A stretch of DNA of 36,000 bases, taken from NCBI GenBank assembly GCA_042216675.1, contig JBDGTS010000052.1, positions 1-36,000 of the forward strand, given 5' to 3'. The stretch is from Halobacteriaceae archaeon (GTDB lineage: Archaea; Halobacteriota; Halobacteria; Halobacteriales; Halobacteriaceae). This document shows, piece by piece, positions 7,330 to 20,597 of the stretch; the first letter of the stretch is position 1, and every line of letters begins with the position of its first letter. The notes under the pieces are model-generated. The model was given only the letters and a program-made list of their open reading frames with translations, had not been told where the DNA came from and searched no databases. The position numbers and the translations under genes are program-made.

Positions 7330-8793
7330 ATGACGCGGAACGTCGCCCTCGTCGTCCTCGACACCGTCCGCAAGGACTACTTCGACGAGTTCGCCCCGCG
7401 TCTCCGCGCCAGGTCGGACTGCTCGTTCGAGCAGTGCCGGGCGGTGAGTTCCTGGAGCGTCCCCAGTCACACCAGCATCTTCACCGGCCGCCTCCCCCAC
7501 CAGCACGGCGTCCACGCGGAGGCGTTCGACGCGTCGTTCGACTTCGGGACGCTCGACGTCGACGACACGTTCTTCGGCGACCTGCCCGACCACACCGCGG
7601 TCGGCCTGAGTGCCAACTCCTACATCAACACGCACTTCGGCGTCGACGCCCTCTTCGAGGCGTTCCACGACTTCTCCATCGGGTCGCACACCGCGGAGTC
7701 GCTGTTCACCGAGGGACTGACCGTCCAGACGTACATGGACGAGACGGACGACCCGCGGGCGTGGCGGCGATACCTCGGGTTCCTCCGGGAATGCCGCGGT
7801 CACGACCACGTCGCCAAGAGCGTCGCCAACGGCGTCTGGGCGAAGGCCGGACCGAAGGTGAAGGCCCTCCCGGTCCCCGTCCCGGAACCGGTCGACGACG
7901 GCGCGGGCGTCATCACGGCGACGGCCGCGGACGCGGCGGCCGACGTCGACGAACCGGCCGTCTTCTTCCTGAACTACATGGACGCTCACACGCCCCTCCG
8001 GAACCTCCTCCAGCACGACCGGAGCATGCACTCGGTCCCGAACTCGTGGAGCTCGACCCAGATAGACAAGTGGGAACTCAACGAGGACGGCCTCGCGACG
8101 GCGGCCTACACGCGGAACTACCGTGACGTCTACGCCGCCGCCGTCGACTACCTCGACCGGACGGCCGTCCGACTGGTCGACGACGTGCAGGCCGCGACCG
8201 ACCGCGAGACGACGTTCGTGGTCGTCTCCGACCACGGCCACAACCTCGGCTACGAGGCCGACGACGGCCTGTTCCACCACACCGGCAGCATGAGCGAGGG
8301 GGTGATGCACACGCCCCTGGAGATCATCAACCCGCCCGACGGCTACCCGGAGACGGAGCCGCGGTTGTTCTCCCACCTCGAGTTGGGCCCGCTCCTGGTC
8401 GCCCTCGCCGAGGAGCGACCGCCCGAAGAGGCGTGGTTCCGCGAGCGCGTGCCCGCGGAGACGGTCGGCCTCCTCGGCGGCGACAACGCGACCTGGGGAC
8501 GGGAGTTCTCGGACGAGCGGTCGGCCTGGTGGAACCGCATGATGCGCGTCGTCTACGAGGGGTCCCGGAAGCGCCAGTGGAACTCGCTGGGCGACGCCGT
8601 CGAGTACCGACTCGACCTCGAGCGCCCCTCGTGGCAGGAGCGAGTCGCGGCCGACGTGGCGGTGTCGGAGGCCGACCGGGCGCCGTTCGACGTGGACCTG
8701 GCGACCTACAAGCGCACCGTCTCCGACGAGACCCAGGACACGGACTTCGACGACGCCGTCGCCGACCAACTCGAACAGCTGGGGTACCTGTAG
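7330..8793 (+). CDS. Sulfatase-like hydrolase/transferase (alkaline phosphatase superfamily)
   Basis: NVALVVLDTVR, SWSVPSHTSIFTG, FFLNYMDAHTP and VVVSDHG motifs, C-terminal QLEQLGYL. Confidence 0.9.
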   Translation: MTRNVALVVLDTVRKDYFDEFAPRLRARSDCSFEQCRAVSSWSVPSHTSIFTGRLPHQHGVHAEAFDASFDFGTLDVDDTFFGDLPDHTAVGLSANSYINTHFGVDALFEAFHDFSIGSHTAESLFTEGLTVQTYMDETDDPRAWRRYLGFLRECRGHDHVAKSVANGVWAKAGPKVKALPVPVPEPVDDGAGVITATAADAAADVDEPAVFFLNYMDAHTPLRNLLQHDRSMHSVPNSWSSTQIDKWELNEDGLATAAYTRNYRDVYAAAVDYLDRTAVRLVDDVQAATDRETTFVVVSDHGHNLGYEADDGLFHHTGSMSEGVMHTPLEIINPPDGYPETEPRLFSHLELGPLLVALAEERPPEEAWFRERVPAETVGLLGGDNATWGREFSDERSAWWNRMMRVVYEGSRKRQWNSLGDAVEYRLDLERPSWQERVAADVAVSEADRAPFDVDLATYKRTVSDETQDTDFDDAVADQLEQLGYL

Positions 8794-12540: not shown

Positions 12541-14961
12541 ATGAGCGACGACAATGCGGGTTCCGGCACGACCGACGTTGGGGGGTCGGGTGGCGACGTC
12601 GAGACGGAACTCTCGCGGGACATGAGCCTCTTCGACATCACGTTCATCGGCGTCGGGGCGATGATCGGCGCCGGCGTGTTCGCCCTGACCGGGTTCGCGG
12701 CCGGACTGGCGGGCCCGGCCCTCACGCTCGCCTTCCTGCTCAACGGCTTCGTGGCCCTGTTCACGGCCGTCTCCTACGCCGAACTCGGCGCGGCGTTCCC
12801 CGAGGCCGGCGGCGGCTACCTCTGGGTGAAGGAAGCCCTCGTCGACCCCAACGGCTTCTACGCGGGGTGGATGTCCTGGTTCGCCCACGCCGTCGCCTGT
12901 TCGCTGTACGCCGTCACCTTCGGCGTGTTCCTCACCGAGTTCCTCATCTACGGAACGTCGCTCACCCACGAGTTCCTCCTGTTCGGCGTCCTCACGCCCG
13001 GCCTCCTCGAGAAGGTCCTCGCGGTATTGATGGTGGCCCTGTTCGCGTACATCAACTTCCGCGGGGCCGAGGAGACCGGCAAGGCCGGCGTGGTCGTCAC
13101 CGGCATCAAGGTGGTCATCCTCGGCGTCTTCGTCGCCTTCGGCATCCTGGCGACGCTGAACACCCCCCAGTGGCCTCAGAAGTTCCTCGGTCACCCCGGG
13201 TTCGCGCCGAACGGCGTCATCGGCATCATCGGCGCGATGGGGTTCACCTACATCGCGTTCGAGGGCTACGAGATCATCGTCCAGTCGGGCGAAGAGGTCG
13301 TCAATCCCGGCGAGAACGTCCCGAAGGCCGTCTTCTACTCGATGGCCATCGTGGTCCCCATCTACATCCTCGTCGCCTTCGCCGCCATCGGGGGCATCTC
13401 GGTGGTGCCCGAACTCGCGACCCGGGCCGGCGTCGCCGCGGACGCCCCGACCTGGCGCCTGCTCGGCAACCTGGGCGAACTCGGCATCATCGAGGCCGCC
13501 GGCCAGTTCGTCCCCTACGGCGTCCCCCTGCTCCTGTTGGCCGGCCTGACCGCCACGATGAGCGCCCTGAACGCGACCGTCTACTCCTCCTCCCGGGTGT
13601 CCTTCGCGATGGGTCGGGACCGGGCGCTCCCGAAACTGTTCTCCGCCATCCACGACGAGAAGCGCACCCCCCACCTCGCGATATTCCTCTCGGCGATACT
13701 CATCGCCGTCATGGCCATCACCCTGCCCATCGAGGCGGTGGCCGCGTCGGCGGACATCATGTTCATCCTGCTGTTCGTGCAGGTGAACTGGACGGTCATA
13801 AAGATGCGGAAGACCCACCCGGACCTCCCCAGGACGTTCGAGGTGCCGTACATGCCGTGGCCCCCGCTGGTCGGCATCGTCCTCCAGTTCCTGCTCACGC
13901 CGTTCCTCCTCTCCGCGCTCGGCATGCAGGTGGGACTCGGCCCAGAGTCACACGGGTTCATCGCCCTCCTGACCACCGTGGTCTGGATGGGTCTCGGCGT
14001 CGCGGTCTACTACGGCTACTCCGCCCCGCGCGAGGCCGAGAAACTCGAGGAGGAGACTCCGACGGTGGCGACCGAGCGCGCGCCCGCGCCGGAGCGGGCC
14101 GAGGCCGAGGAGCGCATCCTCGTCCCCATCGCCAACCCGGAGAGCGTCGAGCAACTGATGCGGACCGCCTTCGACATCGCGGCCGACCGGAACGCCGAGA
14201 TCGTCGCGATGAGCGTCGTCACCGTGCCCCAGCAGACCCCGCTCTCGGAGGGGCGCCGGTTCGTCTCGCACGAGCGCGAGGTCATCGACGCCGCGCTGGA
14301 CTTCGCCGAGGAGGAACGGCCGGACGTCCCGGTCAGCGGCACGATCCGCATCGGTCACGACGTCGCGAAGGCCATCCTGAACACGGTCGAACAGGCCGAC
14401 GTCGACCTCGTCCTCCTGGGTTGGCGGGGTCGCAGTCGCCGCCGCGACGTCGCCCTCGGAAGCAACGTCGACCAGGTGGTCACCGGAGCCCGGTGTGACG
14501 TCCTCGTCGAGCGGATGGGGCCGGCCGAGAAGGTCGAGTCCATCCTCGTCCCGACGGCTGGCGGCCCCCACGCGGCGTTCGCCGCGGAGATCGCGCGCGC
14601 CATCGCCCTGCCGAACGAGGCCCGCGTCGACGTCCTCCACGTCGCCGACGCCGAGGAGGGCGGCGCGGAGCGCTCCGAGAAGATCCTCGCCCGGACCGTC
14701 GACCTCCTCGACGACGACGTCCAGGTGACCACGCAGTCGGTCGTGAGCGACGACGTGGTCGACGAAATCGTGGAGCGCTCGCGGGACTACGACCTGACGA
14801 TCATCGGGTCCTCGCGTGAGAGTCTGCTGCAGCAACTCGTCTTCGGGGCCATCCCCGAGGCGGTCGGACGGCGGGCGAAGAGCACGGTCATCATGGCAAA
14901 GCGGGACCTGGGCATCACCTCCCGCGTGACCCGGTGGTTCCGGGGCTACCGGCGGCGCTGA
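12541..14961 (+). CDS. APC family amino-acid permease fused to two universal-stress (USP) domains
   Basis: GVGAMIGAGVF, SYAELGAAFPEAGGGY and FEGYE motifs. C-terminal ILVPIANP and ILVPTAGGPH...FGAIPEAV USP domains. Confidence 0.93.
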   Translation: MSDDNAGSGTTDVGGSGGDVETELSRDMSLFDITFIGVGAMIGAGVFALTGFAAGLAGPALTLAFLLNGFVALFTAVSYAELGAAFPEAGGGYLWVKEALVDPNGFYAGWMSWFAHAVACSLYAVTFGVFLTEFLIYGTSLTHEFLLFGVLTPGLLEKVLAVLMVALFAYINFRGAEETGKAGVVVTGIKVVILGVFVAFGILATLNTPQWPQKFLGHPGFAPNGVIGIIGAMGFTYIAFEGYEIIVQSGEEVVNPGENVPKAVFYSMAIVVPIYILVAFAAIGGISVVPELATRAGVAADAPTWRLLGNLGELGIIEAAGQFVPYGVPLLLLAGLTATMSALNATVYSSSRVSFAMGRDRALPKLFSAIHDEKRTPHLAIFLSAILIAVMAITLPIEAVAASADIMFILLFVQVNWTVIKMRKTHPDLPRTFEVPYMPWPPLVGIVLQFLLTPFLLSALGMQVGLGPESHGFIALLTTVVWMGLGVAVYYGYSAPREAEKLEEETPTVATERAPAPERAEAEERILVPIANPESVEQLMRTAFDIAADRNAEIVAMSVVTVPQQTPLSEGRRFVSHEREVIDAALDFAEEERPDVPVSGTIRIGHDVAKAILNTVEQADVDLVLLGWRGRSRRRDVALGSNVDQVVTGARCDVLVERMGPAEKVESILVPTAGGPHAAFAAEIARAIALPNEARVDVLHVADAEEGGAERSEKILARTVDLLDDDVQVTTQSVVSDDVVDEIVERSRDYDLTIIGSSRESLLQQLVFGAIPEAVGRRAKSTVIMAKRDLGITSRVTRWFRGYRRR

Positions 14962-15019: not shown

Positions 15020-15343
15020 GTGAACGAACCGGTCGACCCCGACGCGATACGGTGGCTGTTGAGTTTCGCCATCTTCCTCGTCGGGGCGGCGCTCAGCGTC
15101 GTGAGCTACTTCGGGTGGCGGCGCGAACGCGACCGGAAACTCGTCCTCGTGACCGTCGCGTACGCGCTGTTCGCCCTGCGGGGCCTCGCGACGGTGACCG
15201 GCGGCGCCGTCGAATCGACCGTCGAACTGCCCGGGATGCATCCGTCGCTGCTCGTCGTCGCCGTCGTGGTGTTCAACCACCTGTCTGCACTGCTCGTCCT
15301 CGTCGGACTGGTTCTCTTCTTCGTCGCGCTCACCCGCTCGTAG
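15020..15343 (+). CDS. Small three-TM membrane protein (DUF7521-like, partner of wHTH regulators)
   Basis: LSVVSYFGWRRERDRKLVLVTVAYALF pattern. Ends 7 bp before the wHTH gene. Confidence 0.7.
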   Translation: MNEPVDPDAIRWLLSFAIFLVGAALSVVSYFGWRRERDRKLVLVTVAYALFALRGLATVTGGAVESTVELPGMHPSLLVVAVVVFNHLSALLVLVGLVLFFVALTRS

Positions 15344-15350
15344 GTGCTCG

Positions 15351-15869
15351 ATGCCCGAGACAGACCTCCAACTGGAGTCCCGTCGAGACATCTACCAGGA
15401 GGTGCGACGGGCGCCGGGCACGCACTTCCGGGGCCTCCTCCGCGAACTCGACTACGCCAAGGGGACCGTCCAGTACCACCTCCGGTGGCTGGTGGCCAGG
15501 GGCCTCGTCGAGTCCGAGTCCGACGGCGAGTACACCCGCTACTACCCGGCCCGGGAGTTCGAACCGGCGGACAAGGCGACGCTCTCGGCCCTCCGGCGGA
15601 CCTACTCGCGCGAGGTGCTCGCCCACCTCGCCGCCGACGGGCCCCTGACGACGACCGACCTCGCCGAGCGACTGGGCAAGTCGGCGTCGACCGTCTCCTG
15701 GCACCTCTCACGGCTGCACGACGCCGGCCTCGTGGCGAAGCGTCGCGACGGGCGGTCCGTCGAGTACACCCTCGCCGACCGGGAGCGGGTCGCCACGCTG
15801 TACGCCACCTACGAGGAGAGCTTCACCGACCGCCTGCTCGACAACCTGGTCGACGTCTGGAACGCCTGA
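15351..15869 (+). CDS. Tandem winged-helix (ArsR-like) transcriptional regulator
   Basis: RRDIY..PGTHFRGL..GTVQYHL and DLAERLGKSASTVSWHLSRL, i.e. two HTH units. Confidence 0.9.
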   Translation: MPETDLQLESRRDIYQEVRRAPGTHFRGLLRELDYAKGTVQYHLRWLVARGLVESESDGEYTRYYPAREFEPADKATLSALRRTYSREVLAHLAADGPLTTTDLAERLGKSASTVSWHLSRLHDAGLVAKRRDGRSVEYTLADRERVATLYATYEESFTDRLLDNLVDVWNA

Positions 15870-15871
15870 CC

Positions 15872-16432
15872 TCAGTCCCGCGTGGCCGACCCGACGTACC
15901 GCCGGAGGGCCGTCCCGAGGCCGTAGAGGAGCGTCACGAGGAGGGCCGCCGCGACGAGGGCCAGCGACCAGAGCGCGAGCCGTTCGGTCAGGCCCACGAG
16001 GTCGGTGCCGACGGCGACGGCGTGGGCGACGCCGACGCCGAACCCCACGTACGCGAGCGCGTGAACCAGCGACGGGTCCGAGAAGCGCCACGGCGCGAGG
16101 AAGCTCGCAACGGCGACGAGGACGGCCACCAGCGAGAGGACGCCGAGCGCGACGCCCGCGGCGAAGAACCACCCGGGGTAGCCGGGGGCCGGGGCGGCCC
16201 CGGCGGCCACCAGCGCCACGTCCGCCGTGCCGACGACGGCGTGCATCGCCGCGACGATGAGCGCGAAGGCCGACAGCTTCAGGTGATACCGGGTCGCGAG
16301 ACGGTGGGCCACCGCGGGTCGGGGGGCCCGGACGAACACGCCGGTCATGACCGCCGCCCACAGCGACGGGAGCGTCACGAGTGCCGTGCCGCGGTCGAGA
16401 TACCAGAGGGACGTGACCGCAAGCCCGGTCAC
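15872..16432 (-). CDS. Ferric-reductase-like (MsrQ-like) heme-b transmembrane protein
   Basis: WYLDRGT N-terminus and four spaced His in TM helices (RYHLK, AMHAV, LVHALAY, VAHAVAVGTD). No FAD/NAD domain. Confidence 0.75.
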   Translation of the reverse strand: MTGLAVTSLWYLDRGTALVTLPSLWAAVMTGVFVRAPRPAVAHRLATRYHLKLSAFALIVAAMHAVVGTADVALVAAGAAPAPGYPGWFFAAGVALGVLSLVAVLVAVASFLAPWRFSDPSLVHALAYVGFGVGVAHAVAVGTDLVGLTERLALWSLALVAAALLVTLLYGLGTALRRYVGSATRD

Positions 16433-16433
16433 G

Positions 16434-16745
16434 TCAGGACGCCCCCGTCCGCTCGACGACGGTCACGTGGCGGGCCCCGGTTCGCGAGCGCCCGTCGGCG
16501 TCGCCGTCGTCGTCCCCGGTCCCCGAGTCGGCGTCGCGGTGTGCCGTCGTCGTCCGGGCGGCGTCCCGGTCGGCCGCTCGCTCGCGCCCCGCGCTCGAGG
16601 GCCCGCTCGCGTGCTGGCCGTCCGTGACGACGTGTGCGGGGGTCGTGGCGGCGCGGAACGCCGCGACGTTCGTCACGAGGGCCATCGACGCCGCGACGAC
16701 GAGGACGGCCGCCAGCGCCCGGAGCAGGTCACGCGACGTGCGCAT
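16434..16745 (-). CDS. Small membrane-anchored/secreted protein ending in RTGAS (candidate ApbE flavinylation substrate)
   Basis: N-terminal hydrophobic helix, low-complexity linker and a C-terminal [S/T]GA[S/T] match. Overlaps the end of apbE. Confidence 0.65.
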   Translation of the reverse strand: MRTSRDLLRALAAVLVVAASMALVTNVAAFRAATTPAHVVTDGQHASGPSSAGRERAADRDAARTTTAHRDADSGTGDDDGDADGRSRTGARHVTVVERTGAS

Positions 16746-17589
16746 CGAACCCCCCCGTCCGATGGAAGACGCCGTCGTGGACGAGAAACGCCTCCGCGCC
16801 GTCCCACCCCTCGACCAACTCGATGGCCGCCTCGGGGTGGAGGGCGGCGCAGGTCGTCGCGAGCACGTCCGCCTCCGTGCAGTCCCGCCGGGCGAGAACC
16901 GTCACGAGGGCGTTCCGGGCGCCGACGGCCCCCTCGGCCGGTCGGTAGATGTGGTCGACGCCCTTCCGCTGGCGGCGGTAGGACCCGGAGGTGGCGACGT
17001 GCCAGTCCGTGTCGAGGACGCGGAGCGAGTCCCCGCCCCACGGGTTCTCGACGGCGACGCCGCCACCTGTCGGGCCGGCGATGTCGCCGCCGCCGTTGAC
17101 GTATCCGCGGCGGGCCGGGCCGTCGAGGGCCTCGTGGGCCCGGTCGACGATGTAGCCCTTGGCGATGCCGTTCAGGTCCAGCGGTCGGGTGGCACGGACG
17201 GTGTCGTCCTCGACGTCGACGCTGGCCGCCTCGCCCACCGCTCCGGGAGCGCCCCCCTCACCGTCGATGAACCGCTTGACGTCGCGCTCGTCGGCGCCGT
17301 GACGGACGCTGAAGACGCCCTCCGTCCGGCGCTCGTACTCCCGGGCGCGGCGGACGAGGGTCGCCACGTGCCGGTTGGTTACCTCGCCCTCGCGTGCCAG
17401 CCTCGCGACGGCGCTCGACTCGTCGAACGCGTTCAGTTGCGCCTCGAGGTCGCGGGCGACGGCGACCGCCGCCTCGACGGCCCCCGCGGCGCGGAGCCCC
17501 TCCGCGTGTACCTCGAAGTCGGTGTCGCAGCACTCGAAGGACCGCGACGCCGTGCCGACGGCGGCGTAGGCCCGCTCGAGGACGCTCAC
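16729..17589 (-). CDS. apbE: FAD:protein FMN transferase (ApbE family)
   Basis: S.VARL, LDLNGIAKGYIVD, VNGGGDI, VATSGSYRR, HIYRP and ADVLATT motifs. GTG 17589 forms a GTGA overlap with the upstream stop. Confidence 0.9.
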   Translation of the reverse strand: MSVLERAYAAVGTASRSFECCDTDFEVHAEGLRAAGAVEAAVAVARDLEAQLNAFDESSAVARLAREGEVTNRHVATLVRRAREYERRTEGVFSVRHGADERDVKRFIDGEGGAPGAVGEAASVDVEDDTVRATRPLDLNGIAKGYIVDRAHEALDGPARRGYVNGGGDIAGPTGGGVAVENPWGGDSLRVLDTDWHVATSGSYRRQRKGVDHIYRPAEGAVGARNALVTVLARRDCTEADVLATTCAALHPEAAIELVEGWDGAEAFLVHDGVFHRTGGFDAHVA

Positions 17590-17879
17590 GGCGCGACACC
17601 CAGGAGGACGGCGACGGAGACGCTGCCGGCGAACCCGTACCACGCGTAGCGCACGGCCGTCCCGCCGTCGACGGGGTACTGGAGGCCCCGGAGCGTCGCG
17701 ACGGCCGTGCCGGCGGTGCGGCGGACGGCGGTCGGTTCGGCGGCGACCTGCTCGTAGCGGCGCCGGTCGATGGGCCCGAGTTCCGACGGGTCGTGTGCGT
17801 CGTGGAGGTGGCGACGGTAGCCCCGCTCCCCCTCGACCGCGGCGCCACAGTGGTCACACTCGGTCTTCGTGCCGGGCAT
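17586..17879 (-). CDS. C2H2 zinc-finger microprotein with C-terminal TM helix
   Basis: CDHC-x12-HLHDAH, ELGPIDRRR and a hydrophobic C-terminus. First gene of the apbE operon. Confidence 0.75.
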   Translation of the reverse strand: MPGTKTECDHCGAAVEGERGYRRHLHDAHDPSELGPIDRRRYEQVAAEPTAVRRTAGTAVATLRGLQYPVDGGTAVRYAWYGFAGSVSVAVLLGVAP

Positions 17880-18143: not shown

Positions 18144-18812
18144 TCAGTCGCCCCCGGTGAACTGGGCCATCACGTCCCCGGTCATCCCCTGCCGGGAGAA
18201 CACCGTGACGAGGTCGCCGGCGTGGATGGTCGTGTCGCCGCGCGGCGTGATGACGTCGCTGTCGCGTTCGATGGCCACGACGAGGACCTCCTCCCCGATG
18301 AACCCGCGGTCGCCCGCCTCTTCGAGGGTGACTTCGGCCAGCGGGGCGCCCTGGGTGACGGTTATCTCGAACACCTCCGCGCTGTCCGCGAGGTGCATGA
18401 AGTCCTTGACGGAGGGGCGCTGGACCGCGCGGACGAGGTACTCCGCGATGAGTCGCTGGGGGTTCTCGATGACGTTCGCGCCGATGCGCCGGAAGAGGTT
18501 CATGTGCTCGGGGTTCTGGACGACGGAGACGAGCGACGGGATCTCCAGTTCCTGTGCGAGCAACAGCACCATAATGTTCGTCGCGTCCTGGTCGGTCGTG
18601 GAGATGATGGCGTCGGCGCGCTCCGCGCCGGCGTCGACGAGCGTCTCCTTGACCGTCGCGTCGGCGTTGATGACGAGACAGTCGTGTTCCCGGCCGACGG
18701 CGTCCGCGACTGCGGGGTCGTGCTCGACGACGGCCACCTCGTTGTTCGACTGGGTCAACAGGTCGATGACGGGAGTGCCTATCTGGCCGGCGCCCACGAC
18801 GATGGCGTACAT
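18144..18812 (-). CDS. trkA: Trk potassium uptake NAD-binding subunit
   Basis: IVVGAGQIG Rossmann motif, DAIISTTDQDATN and an RCK-C domain (ITPRGDTTIHAGD). Confidence 0.92.
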   Translation of the reverse strand: MYAIVVGAGQIGTPVIDLLTQSNNEVAVVEHDPAVADAVGREHDCLVINADATVKETLVDAGAERADAIISTTDQDATNIMVLLLAQELEIPSLVSVVQNPEHMNLFRRIGANVIENPQRLIAEYLVRAVQRPSVKDFMHLADSAEVFEITVTQGAPLAEVTLEEAGDRGFIGEEVLVVAIERDSDVITPRGDTTIHAGDLVTVFSRQGMTGDVMAQFTGGD

Positions 18813-18855
18813 GCGGACACGCTGTGGTGGCCCGCGCTCCGTTCTTACTCTTTCG

Positions 18856-19059
18856 CTATCGGTCCCACCAGTTGTGGGCCACGTTCGCGAGGAAGGTGAC
18901 GAGGTAGAGGGTCGCCACCGCCTCCGAGACGGGCCTGCGCCCGACGACGGCGAGGGCGGCGATGACGAGGACGCCACCGACGAGGAGGGCGTCGAACAGC
19001 CTGTCGTCGGCGCCGGACTCGACGACGGCGGCGACGAGGGGCAGGTCTTCGGGGTTCAC
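18856..19059 (-). CDS. Small two-TM membrane protein between trkH and trkA
   Basis: MNPEDLPLV...DDRLFDALLVGG..., 67 aa. GTGA overlap with the trkH stop. Confidence 0.65.
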   Translation of the reverse strand: MNPEDLPLVAAVVESGADDRLFDALLVGGVLVIAALAVVGRRPVSEAVATLYLVTFLANVAHNWWDR

Positions 19060-20597
19060 GCGTACATCCCACCCCGGTTGAAGATGGCGCGCAGCAGGAC
19101 GAGCACCGGGATTATCTCGAGGCGGCCGATCCACATGTTGAACACGAGCATCACCTTCGCCACCAGCGGCATCGCCGCGCCGGTGATGCCCGCCGAGAGG
19201 CCCACGTTGCCCTGCGCGCTCGCCACCTCGAAGATGAGGTTCTCTAACGTGTACCCGTCGGGGCCGGTGTGGACGGCCGCGAGGAGGACGAACGTGCCGA
19301 CGACGAGGAACACCGCCCAGAGGAAGGCGATGATGGCCGCCTCCTCGAACTCCTGGGCCGCCTCCGTCTCCGAGAGCGTCCGCCCGTTGATCTGGAAGTG
19401 TCTGACCGCGCTCTCGGGGTAGAAGACGCCGCGGATGCGGAACAGGATAGCCTTGACGAGCGTTATCCCGCGGATGAGTTTGATGCCGCCGACGGTCGAC
19501 CCGGCCGCGCCCCCGACGACCATCCCCAGCGAGACGGTCAACTGGGCCTCCGGCGACCAGGACGACCCCAGCAACGGGACGGTCTGGAAGCCGGTGCAGG
19601 AGGCCGCCGAGACGAACTGGAAGGTGGCGTACCGGACGGCCGTGAGCACGTCGTCGTACGTGCCGTTCGCGAGCAACGCGAGCGTCAGCCCCGCCGCCCC
19701 GAGGCCGAAGAAGCCGAAGACCCACCGCGTCTGGATGTCCGTGTAGAGGTTCCGAAGGTCGCCCTGCAGCATCAGGTAGTGGACGGGGAAGGCGATGCTG
19801 CCCAGCACCATCACCGGGATGAGGGCGGCGTCGATGACCGCGCTGTGATAGGACGCGATGCTCTGGTCGGTGACGCTGAACCCGCCCGTGGCGAGGCCGG
19901 TCATCGCGTGGTTGATGGCGTCCCAGAGCGGCATGCCCGCCAGCCACAGCAGGAGGATGGAGACGAAGGTGAAGAGGATGAAGATCCACCAGATGGTCCG
20001 GACCGTCGAGACGACGCTCGGGTGTATCTTCTCGGAGCGCGCCTCGGACTCGTAGAGGGTGAGCGACCCGCTGCCGGGGCGGGCCAGTATCGCCGTCGTG
20101 AGGACGATTACGCCGACGCCGCCGACCCACTCGATGAACGAGCGCCACCACTGCAGCGTCGCGGGGAGCCTGTTCTCGTGAGTCGACATCGTCAGCCCCG
20201 TCCCGGTGAACCCGCTCATCGACTCGAAGACGCCGTTGAGGGGGTGTCGGAAGGCCGCGAGCGTCTGCGTCATCGGGGGCGTGTGGACGACGGGGAGGCC
20301 CACCTGGACGGTCCAGGCGACGAGCAGGAACGGCAGCGAGCCGAAGAGCGCGACGAAGAACCACCCGGCAGCCGCGATCATCATCCCGTGGAGCTTTCCG
20401 GGGTCGGCGGCCTCCCGGAAGCGCACCGCGAGGCCGCGGCCGATGGCGAAGGGGACTGCGCCGGCGACCAGGAGCGCGGGGACGGCGTAGTACTCCCCCC
20501 AGACGAGCGGGACGACGAGCGAGACGAACATCATCCCCGAGAGCGCCTGGAGCATCCGCCCCAGGTCACGCGCGATGGTCGCCAACTGCCGTGCCAT
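19056..20597 (-). CDS. trkH: Trk potassium uptake membrane subunit
   Basis: FESMSGFTGTG, ATGGFS, SCTGFQ and QGNVGLS pore loops, plus GSTVGGIK and IGRLE. Confidence 0.95.
   Translation of the reverse strand: MARQLATIARDLGRMLQALSGMMFVSLVVPLVWGEYYAVPALLVAGAVPFAIGRGLAVRFREAADPGKLHGMMIAAAGWFFVALFGSLPFLLVAWTVQVGLPVVHTPPMTQTLAAFRHPLNGVFESMSGFTGTGLTMSTHENRLPATLQWWRSFIEWVGGVGVIVLTTAILARPGSGSLTLYESEARSEKIHPSVVSTVRTIWWIFILFTFVSILLLWLAGMPLWDAINHAMTGLATGGFSVTDQSIASYHSAVIDAALIPVMVLGSIAFPVHYLMLQGDLRNLYTDIQTRWVFGFFGLGAAGLTLALLANGTYDDVLTAVRYATFQFVSAASCTGFQTVPLLGSSWSPEAQLTVSLGMVVGGAAGSTVGGIKLIRGITLVKAILFRIRGVFYPESAVRHFQINGRTLSETEAAQEFEEAAIIAFLWAVFLVVGTFVLLAAVHTGPDGYTLENLIFEVASAQGNVGLSAGITGAAMPLVAKVMLVFNMWIGRLEIIPVLVLLRAIFNRGGMYA

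Follow-up and report, generated by a model that had tools for sequence, protein, structure and literature searches.

The covalent attachment of flavin mononucleotide (FMN) by ApbE-family transferases is a widespread means of wiring redox chemistry outside the bacterial cytosol and, to our knowledge, has barely been studied in archaea. Besides the FMN_bind domain (PF04205), the known ApbE substrate families are DUF2271, DUF3570, NqrB/RnfD, FMN_red and Flavodoxin_4. The substrate motif is described as [S/T]GA[S/T], and FMN goes to its last residue (PMC8238504, PMC12052999). The closest described systems are the bacterial MsrQ-like flavinylation clusters (Meheust et al. 2021, PMC8238504; Huang et al. 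2024, preprint 10.1101/2024.03.13.584918), which their authors propose to carry out transmembrane electron transfer, partly for iron reduction, as assimilatory iron reductases (PMC8238504). In these clusters, as they are described there, apbE adjoins the genes of a membrane protein that has a ferric-reductase domain and two predicted heme sites, and of a membrane-anchored flavinylated partner. The same combination, the flavinylated partner being a candidate, is found in the locus studied here. It lies in a stretch of 36,000 nucleotides (hereafter, the window) at the start of contig JBDGTS010000052.1 from assembly GCA_042216675.1. The source is a salt-lake haloarchaeon, and the two DNA runs of the region both come from one salt-lake metagenome study. 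On the minus strand, between positions 15872 and 17879, four open reading frames (ORFs), all intact, form an overlapping or abutting string. They encode a zinc-finger protein of 97 amino acids (aa), an ApbE, a 103-aa anchored mini-protein and a 186-aa membrane protein related at a distance to the ferric-reductase domain (FRD-like). Comparison with relatives indicates that a conserved haloarchaeal module is present here in a divergent version. The module has the appearance of a minimal, hitherto undescribed device by which electrons would cross the membrane.

The original prediction on this locus was made from the window alone, and its description of the genes was confirmed. The coordinates bear out the tight coupling that it reported, with a GTGA overlap between the 97-aa gene and apbE (17586-17589), a 17-bp overlap between apbE and the mini-protein gene (16729-16745) and a single base before the FRD-like gene (16433). 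The third protein does have a hydrophobic N-terminal anchor followed by an acidic low-complexity linker, an RTGAR 12 residues before the end and RTGAS as its last residues before the stop. The fourth protein, for which four transmembrane (TM) histidines and no cytosolic FAD/NAD domain had been noted, keeps these histidines in all the homologues aligned. ApbE is the sole gene of the string that Pfam names, and an NCBIfam scan of the four minus-strand genes returned no family for any of them.

The linkage of these genes is the main evidence for the module. With the 186-aa FRD-like protein as a query, matches were found in nine of 61 related genomes. A wider survey covered 201 haloarchaeal genomes, for which a completeness of at least 90% was requested, and used an FRD-like profile built from eight homologues together with the Pfam family of ApbE. 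The FRD-like profile matched 23 of the 201 genomes (20 of 187 in the higher-quality subset) and the ApbE family 24. The strong matches to each number 22, fall in identical genomes and are always adjacent: in 22/22 cases both genes lie on one contig, 300-450 bp apart, and there is one full-length ApbE per genome. Beyond these shared genomes, a weak FRD-like paralogue without ApbE occurs in G131 (E = 5.7e-14) and short partial ApbE matches occur in G155 and G190 (about 1e-8). When the 22 loci were searched with tblastn, ApbE and a homologue of the regulator that adjoins the module were recovered in 22/22, a small membrane protein in 21/22 within the 1.5-kb flank and an upstream acidic protein in 16/22, the flanks being only 1.5 kb long. 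In the 22nd locus (G047) the small membrane protein lies further out, behind an inserted transposase-like ORF; this ORF of about 284 aa stands between the FRD-like gene and the regulator (L013:8611-9462). In eight loci with flanks of about 8 kb, only six module families recur at fixed positions and no conserved transporter or reductase partner was found. Thus, by sequence comparison, the module of most relatives is made up of an anchored acidic protein, ApbE, the mini-protein, a five-TM protein with two predicted hemes, a convergent regulator and a small membrane protein. It occurs in 16 of 58 genera, and so patchy a distribution suggests that the trait is accessory and transferable. The usual ApbE substrates appear to be missing from the carriers, since neither FMN_bind (PF04205) nor NqrB/RnfD (PF03116) was detected in any of five carrier genomes, four of them 99% complete.

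The most probable substrate is the mini-protein. In all 24 loci that were read, a small anchored ORF fills the gap between the ApbE and FRD-like genes and stops at or within one base of the FRD-like start, mostly in the form TGATG or TAATG. It ends in TGAS in 20 of these loci, in TRAS in two (G114, G035) and in THAS in two (G177, G181), a count that omits two weak FRD-like matches (G131; contig C108 of G062) which failed the motif filter. A database search with a typical mini-protein retrieved 255 proteins at E <= 0.001; those with a named source are all haloarchaeal (Natronomonas moolapensis and Halobacterium hubeiense among them), and the annotations are hypothetical protein or thrombospondin type 3 (TSP3) repeat protein. 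Among the 120 matches listed of these 255, all 120 end in TGAS with the stop right after the Ser, 118 end in TTGAS and 103 are exactly 95 aa long. A neighbourhood survey for a conserved terminal [S/T]GA[S/T] was the check that the original prediction had proposed, and these counts answer it in its favor. Such an ending is rare otherwise: the 2.15-Mb assembly of the window has 14,654 stop-to-stop frames that reach 80 aa or more, and [ST]GA[ST] closes four of them, the mini-protein included. Among the frames passing a gene-like codon-position filter, which excludes the mini-protein itself (its second-position guanine-plus-cytosine (GC) fraction is 0.74), there are 0/1,570 against 0.21 expected from composition. 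Given that the mini-protein stands beside the only ApbE of its genome and that its end is conserved, chance falls far short of explaining the coincidence. No conserved [ST]GA[ST] other than this terminus exists in the six module proteins, the sole other match being in one of eight FRD-like sequences. In the 24 loci the Ala codon is GCG, GCA or GCC and the Ser codon TCG, TCC, TCT or TCA, and this synonymous variation argues for selection at the protein level. The terminal T-G-A-S of the window copy fits the substrate motif with the acceptor last. According to a review of ApbE, the minimal motif comprises seven residues with the acceptor last, and engineered flavin tags at either the N- or the C-terminus are typically fully flavinylated (PMC12052999).

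The remainder of the mini-protein is more variable. Typical members have a basic N-terminus, one TM helix, a linker, an Asp-rich repeat with two Cys close to Pfam TSP_3 (PF02412), and the tail. Two relatives score 24.6 and 26.2 bits against this family, whose cut-off is 25, and the database marks PF02412 on many of the homologues. The window copy matches neither PF02412 nor, at E up to 10, any other Pfam family; FMN_bind, the known substrate fold, was not detected in it, and its relatives match TSP_3 only. Both the window copy and its closest relative, from G035, keep the anchor and the tail and have a degenerate acidic linker without Cys; in the window copy, both anchor and tail can be aligned to the 95-aa family. 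The arm without any folded domain that the original prediction had described is therefore a fair description of the window, whereas most relatives carry a two-Cys TSP3-type repeat of the Ca-binding kind.

The assignment of ApbE itself is straightforward. The window protein matches PF02424 with E = 4.4e-32 and 112.1 bits (cut-off 25.6) over profile positions 2-265 of 266, and aligns residue by residue to the solved ApbE/Ftp chains 1vrm, 4xdt, 4ifu and 7mgt. In this alignment the active-site blocks GIAKGY, GGD, ATSG.Y, H-I-x-x-P (dHIyrP) and AD.LAT (eADvLAT) are kept, the catalytic His of the fourth block being assigned from the account of Vc_ApbE His257 given in the review (PMC12052999). The gene is single-copy in its assembly, and the predicted activity of its product is the transfer of FMN to Ser/Thr. 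No signal peptide, lipobox or hydrophobic N-terminus was found in any of the 22 loci, in which some 20-25 polar residues precede the first conserved strand; the enzyme is therefore predicted to be cytoplasmic. In genome G001 (85% complete) the ApbE match is in two pieces in different frames (G001:C1:1753373-1754109), by a frameshift or an assembly error, and the mini-protein still finishes in TTGAS.

The FRD-like protein carries two pairs of histidines, H50/H64 and H124/H137, spaced by 14 and 13 residues on helices 2 and 4. All four are invariant, both in 8/8 and in 15/15 aligned homologues. The spacing (13 and 12 residues between the paired His) matches what we take to be the pattern of NOX2, and the two pairs could hold two b hemes. 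The protein has no soluble domain, and the module is devoid of a cytosolic dehydrogenase domain. The AlphaFold 2 (AF2) model has five helices (predicted local distance difference test (pLDDT) of 74.3), not the six of a complete domain in one chain. The only Pfam family matched by all eight members is Ferric_reduct (PF01794), always below threshold and over nearly the full length (best E = 0.0011). A profile search of 1.84 billion representative sequences gave 272 matches at E <= 0.001, 15 of them below 1e-30, and six of the ten distant relatives scanned pass the PF01794 cut-off. Two low-GC proteins above this cut-off, P0166 and P0169, unite a signal or TM segment, a TSP3_bac domain (PF18884) and Ferric_reduct in one chain, with the TSP3 part between the signal-like segment and the first FRD helix, and three haloarchaeal-looking paralogues likewise unite a TM segment, an acidic linker and the FRD-like part; no [ST]GA[ST] was found in the former and no TGAS in the latter. 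As regards close relatives, no fusion of mini-protein and heme protein was found in the longer ones read of the 15 representatives at E < 1e-30, a check that did not extend to P0135 (2380 aa, 18 matched stretches). These longer ones, P0125 (243 aa) and P0127 (206 aa), have no anchor or TGAS and were taken as miscalled starts or chimeras. In structural comparisons, the top Foldseek rows for the model are STEAP1, STEAP2, STEAP4, cytochrome b561 and NOX5. The best long natural matches in VIA-align are STEAP1 (Z 12.1, 163 residues aligned), STEAP4 (Z 12.0, 172 residues), SpNOX (Z 11.6, 155 residues), cytochrome b561 (Z 11.4, 149 residues) and NOX2 (Z 10.2, 179 residues). The STEAP and NOX alignments start after what we take to be the first TM helix (TM1) of these targets. 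By these comparisons, the protein is a remote homologue of the ferric-reductase/NOX/STEAP-type domain that lacks TM1.

The missing helix may be supplied by the mini-protein. In 15 FRD-like sequences, 2.7-3.1 K+R are found in loop 1, loop 3 and the C-terminus and only 0-0.3 in the N-terminus, loop 2 and loop 4; by the positive-inside rule the protein would therefore have its N-terminus out and its C-terminus in, as do helices 2-6 of NOX. The mini-protein has 2.0 K+R before its helix against 1.2 K+R and 2.3 D+E after it, with a net charge of about -9 in the tail, and is predicted to be N-in/C-out. The complex was modelled with two hemes and FMN for the orthologous pair from genome G002, not for the window pair. 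It obtained a median score of 0.76 (best of three controls, 0.00), with at least 89% contact agreement between runs and a partner pLDDT of at least 62. A score of 0.76 is reached by 58 of 80 solved complexes and by two of 110 mismatched pairs, a calibration that is only rough, the alignments being custom-made and the ligands present, and memory of six-helix FRD structures may have contributed. In the model, residues 4-41 of the mini-protein pack on helices 4 and 5 of the FRD-like protein, parallel to helix 4. The complex model and the fused TSP3_bac/Ferric_reduct relatives support the idea that the ferric-reductase domain may be split here, with helix 1 and its outer loop contributed by the mini-protein and the flavin borne on the C-terminus so created.

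These elements can be brought together in one scenario. ApbE would move FMN from flavin adenine dinucleotide (FAD) onto the hydroxyl of the last residue of the mini-protein, the Ser of ...TGAS-COOH. The single TM helix of the mini-protein would dock on the five-TM protein and so provide in trans the absent first helix of a six-helix NOX/STEAP/MsrQ-type fold. Its acidic or Ca-binding tail would act as a short tether that keeps the FMN close to the outer heme, on the outer face of the membrane. Electrons would then be exchanged along a chain made up of a membrane or cytoplasmic donor, the inner and outer hemes, the FMN arm and an acceptor outside the cytoplasm, for which our guess is a metal chelate such as Fe(III). 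No gene of the module points to a particular donor or acceptor, and the quinol link and the outside partner of the original prediction are conjectural, as is the direction of electron flow. On balance we hold this flavin-tagged split heme reductase to be probable.

Nevertheless, several observations weigh against this scenario, and the first of them concern the motif. The Asp of the canonical D-x-x-[ST]-G-A-[ST] is out of register: the window sequence V-E-R-T-G-A-S has Val there, and in the typical relatives (D-V-V-x-T-T-G-A-S) the Asp lies two positions further upstream, although a change of this Asp to Ala is reported to have minor effects only (PMC12052999). The motif Gly is replaced by Arg or His in four loci whose genomes all retain ApbE, so that Gly cannot be absolutely required for whatever is selected; either it is dispensable for this ApbE or the Arg and His copies are not flavinylated. 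In addition, the Thr codon is ACG in 24/24 loci and the Gly codon GGG in 18/20, and part of the conservation may serve the translation of the overlapping downstream gene, whose start lies 8-12 nucleotides further on. All this could be explained if TGAS were kept for another reason, as a contact with the heme protein or as a nucleotide signal for translational coupling, with ApbE acting elsewhere or as a flavin-trafficking FAD pyrophosphatase; some ApbE/Ftp proteins are described to hydrolyse FAD instead of transferring FMN (PMC4767422). Yet Ala and Ser are kept although their codons vary synonymously, each of the 120 homologues listed stops exactly after the Ser, the module offers no other conserved [ST]GA[ST] and no FMN_bind or NqrB/RnfD protein was found in the five genomes, which makes this explanation unlikely. 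The core of the original prediction, that ApbE flavinylates the terminal Ser of an anchored protein serving a heme-b protein, is supported by the adjacency in 22/22 genomes, by the motif in 20/24 loci and by the lack of another substrate family in five genomes, and weakened by the four loci without the motif Gly.

The second difficulty is one of sides. An ApbE without a signal sits badly with a motif that is predicted to be outside the cell, and the last residues of the mini-protein make no confident contact in the complex model. Three routes are possible: FMN could be attached in the cytoplasm and the tail then translocated, the tail could be cytoplasmic, or ApbE could reach the outside by some route of its own. 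Twin-arginine translocation (Tat) of a pre-loaded mini-protein was rejected as a general answer, as a twin arginine near the N-terminus occurs in 6/120 peptides only. The first route, in which FMN is put on the C-terminal residue of a protein of about 95 aa by a cytoplasmic ApbE devoid of a signal, the tail crosses the membrane and the anchor completes a split di-heme protein of NOX/STEAP type, is put forward as a tentative and rather doubtful proposal; if it were true, this way of making an extracytoplasmic flavoprotein would be new, and the module would be the smallest known heme-flavin transmembrane reductase, independent of flavin export. The second route amounts to a different machine made of the same parts, in which ApbE and tail are both cytoplasmic and the tethered FMN is the point of electron entry to the inner heme, taking the place of the FAD/NAD(P)H domain carried by NOX and many bacterial MsrQ-like proteins. 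It would agree with the signal-less ApbE of 22/22 loci and with the lack of a cytosolic dehydrogenase domain in the module, and cytoplasmic ApbEs with cytoplasmic substrates are described, for instance for the fumarate reductase of Klebsiella (PMC12052999). Nonetheless, the positive-inside counts place the N-terminus of the mini-protein inside, its modelled anchor runs parallel to FRD-like helix 4, which goes from inside to outside, and the TSP3 part of the fused relatives lies between the signal-like segment and the first FRD helix. Paired-Cys TSP3 repeats are, moreover, typical of extracytoplasmic proteins. On these grounds an inward-facing flavin seems quite unlikely, and the outside-facing arm of the original prediction is retained for its topology, with the signal-less ApbE as the point that speaks against it.

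A third set of objections concerns the heme protein. The window sequence scores 9.4 bits against PF01794 (E = 1.4), far from the cut-off of 28 bits, and a sequence search of the PDB with the FRD-like profile gave no match at E up to 10. The best Foldseek E-value is only 6.6e-3, and designed four-helix bundles reach Z 13.1 in VIA-align, as high as STEAP; the fold evidence is therefore consistent and not decisive. For the heme-b membrane protein of the original prediction, this leaves a candidate with four invariant histidines, a match to PF01794 below threshold and five TM helices instead of six.

Finally, the window copy is atypical, being without the TSP3 cysteines and the upstream acidic protein. 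That it is a decaying or non-functional version of the module is very improbable. In favor of decay, the mini-protein has lost the TSP3 consensus together with both Cys and is missed by BLAST with a typical member, the FRD-like protein shares only 38-45% identity with the others, another gene has taken the place of the upstream acidic protein, and a truncated second FRD-like copy lies on another contig of the assembly. Against decay, none of the four frames is broken and their overlaps are tight, the copy retains the four His, the catalytic blocks of ApbE and the TGAS end, and it still has the regulator and the small membrane protein beside it.

The features of the locus are collected in the table below.

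Table. Position and features of the module genes in the window
Feature	Position	Strand	Remarks
97-aa protein	17586-17879	-	First in the string; N-terminal C2H2-like zinc-finger motif CxxC...HxxxH; hydrophobic C-terminal tail
ApbE-family FAD:protein FMN transferase, 286 aa	16729-17589	-	GTG start at 17589; PF02424
103-aa mini-protein, candidate ApbE substrate	16434-16745	-	N-terminal TM helix, acidic linker, RTGAS-stop
Codons of terminal T-G-A-S	16437-16448	-	Final Ser is the proposed FMN acceptor
186-aa five-TM four-His protein (FRD-like), cytochrome b candidate	15872-16432	-	Distant ferric-reductase domain (MsrQ/NOX/STEAP-like), without TM1
172-aa double winged-helix regulator	15351-15869	+	HVO_0163-type N-terminal helix-turn-helix (HTH) and ArsR/SmtB-like HTH; PF24266 E=1.6e-22, NF033788 E=1.4e-24
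107-aa small membrane protein, no known family	15020-15343	+	Upstream of the regulator, same orientation

The regulator gene converges tail-to-tail on the FRD-like gene. At the other end of the string, the 97-aa zinc-finger protein has no Pfam or NCBIfam family and was rejected as a module member; the original prediction had counted it in the operon, and it turned out to be specific to the window, its position in the relatives being held by an unrelated anchored acidic protein. Elsewhere it has weak matches only (E = 1.7e-8 or weaker), most of them over the zinc-finger part, and its five listed loci fall in genomes where the FRD-like query found nothing. In most loci the gene before ApbE (for instance L013:6431-6778 and L017:6496-6789) specifies an anchored protein that has a conserved TPNQxFTP box and a long tail rich in Glu, His and Tyr. 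This protein, which belongs to no Pfam family and is not present in the window, may bind metal. Further out in the window, the ORFs at 12541-14961 (+), 18144-18977 (-) and 19056-20597 (-) resemble, by eye, an amino-acid permease with C-terminal universal-stress-type domains and a TrkA/TrkH potassium-uptake pair. None of these flanking ORFs recurs beside the module in the eight relative loci. A second, truncated FRD-like copy is present in the same assembly on contig C57 (G000, 8320-8613; L010/L041), where a 106-aa frame covers profile positions 84-183. Next to it lies another homologue of the HTH regulator. The truncated copy resembles the typical family more closely in sequence than the intact copy of the window does, and may be the remnant of an older module.

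The module of G035 is divided between two contigs. One (L049, G035:C1, 2750-4493) has ApbE in convergent orientation to the regulator and the small membrane protein. The other (L011, G035:C27, 1-4429) has the mini-protein, ending in TTRAS, and the FRD-like gene, which are followed by an MFS transporter and immediately preceded by a FecCD-type permease and a FecE/FhuC-like ATPase, these last two scoring below their equivalog cut-offs. The loss of ApbE was considered as the cause of the Gly-to-Arg change in this genome and rejected, as a full ApbE is present beside the regulator pair on the other contig. The surroundings of this pair, the ArsR/SmtB-type domain of the regulator and the Glu/His/Tyr-rich upstream tail of the relatives are weak hints of a role in metal handling. 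Metal reduction for uptake is our guess for this role.

If the proposed scenario is correct, the module has several implications. About 4% of the genomes in a large survey had an "orphan" apbE without known substrate (PMC8238504). The module would account for the ApbE of haloarchaea, every full-length copy in the 201 genomes being part of it. It would reveal a new class of ApbE substrates defined by a terminal tetrapeptide only, indicate that a flavin can act as a tethered redox centre without a binding fold, give a natural precedent for the engineered flavin tag and provide a simple two-protein heme-flavin conduit for study. It would also raise the question of how a cofactor attached by a signal-less enzyme gets outside. 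As the original prediction had supposed, neither these genes nor a haloarchaeal ApbE system was found described in the literature, the supplementary cluster tables of the 2021 survey not being covered. That survey retained a gene only if a signal peptide or lipidation site was predicted for it, and its MsrQ-like systems were defined by PF01794 (PMC8238504); the module would be missed by both criteria.

Compared with the MsrQ-like clusters, as these are described, the module differs in each of its parts. Their substrate is a folded FMN_bind domain with an internal motif, whereas the module has no such domain and the proposed acceptor is the last residue of a protein of about 95 aa. Their ApbE has a signal peptide or lipobox and that of the haloarchaea has neither. 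Their six-helix membrane protein scores above the PF01794 cut-off and in many cases includes an NAD-binding domain, in contrast to the five helices, sub-threshold match and absent soluble domain seen here. These clusters are also mostly actinobacterial, and the module haloarchaeal. The mini-protein is reminiscent of the Flavin-tag of Tong and Fraaije (PMC12052999, PMC9400968), in which a short terminal peptide with the ApbE motif is reported to suffice for covalent FMN attachment without a flavin-binding fold. That tag is man-made, and its common 12-residue F1 version keeps three residues after the acceptor Thr (PMC9400968); the mini-protein is natural, its proposed acceptor is a Ser at the very C-terminus and its Asp is not at the canonical position. 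FMN_red proteins associated with ApbE (Huang et al. 2024) are similar in having the motif on an unstructured C-terminal extension, not inside FMN_bind, but they have a flavodoxin-like fold that already binds flavin, for which the mini-protein has no equivalent. With the NOX/STEAP/MsrQ domain (PF01794), the FRD-like protein shares two His pairs on two helices and the predicted topology; its best long natural structural matches include members of that domain, and it differs in having no helix 1 in cis, no dehydrogenase domain and a score below the Pfam cut-off. The fused P0166 and P0169 have the same order of parts (signal or anchor, Asp-rich repeat of the Ca-binding type, ferric-reductase helices) in a single chain and differ from the module in the lack of [ST]GA[ST].

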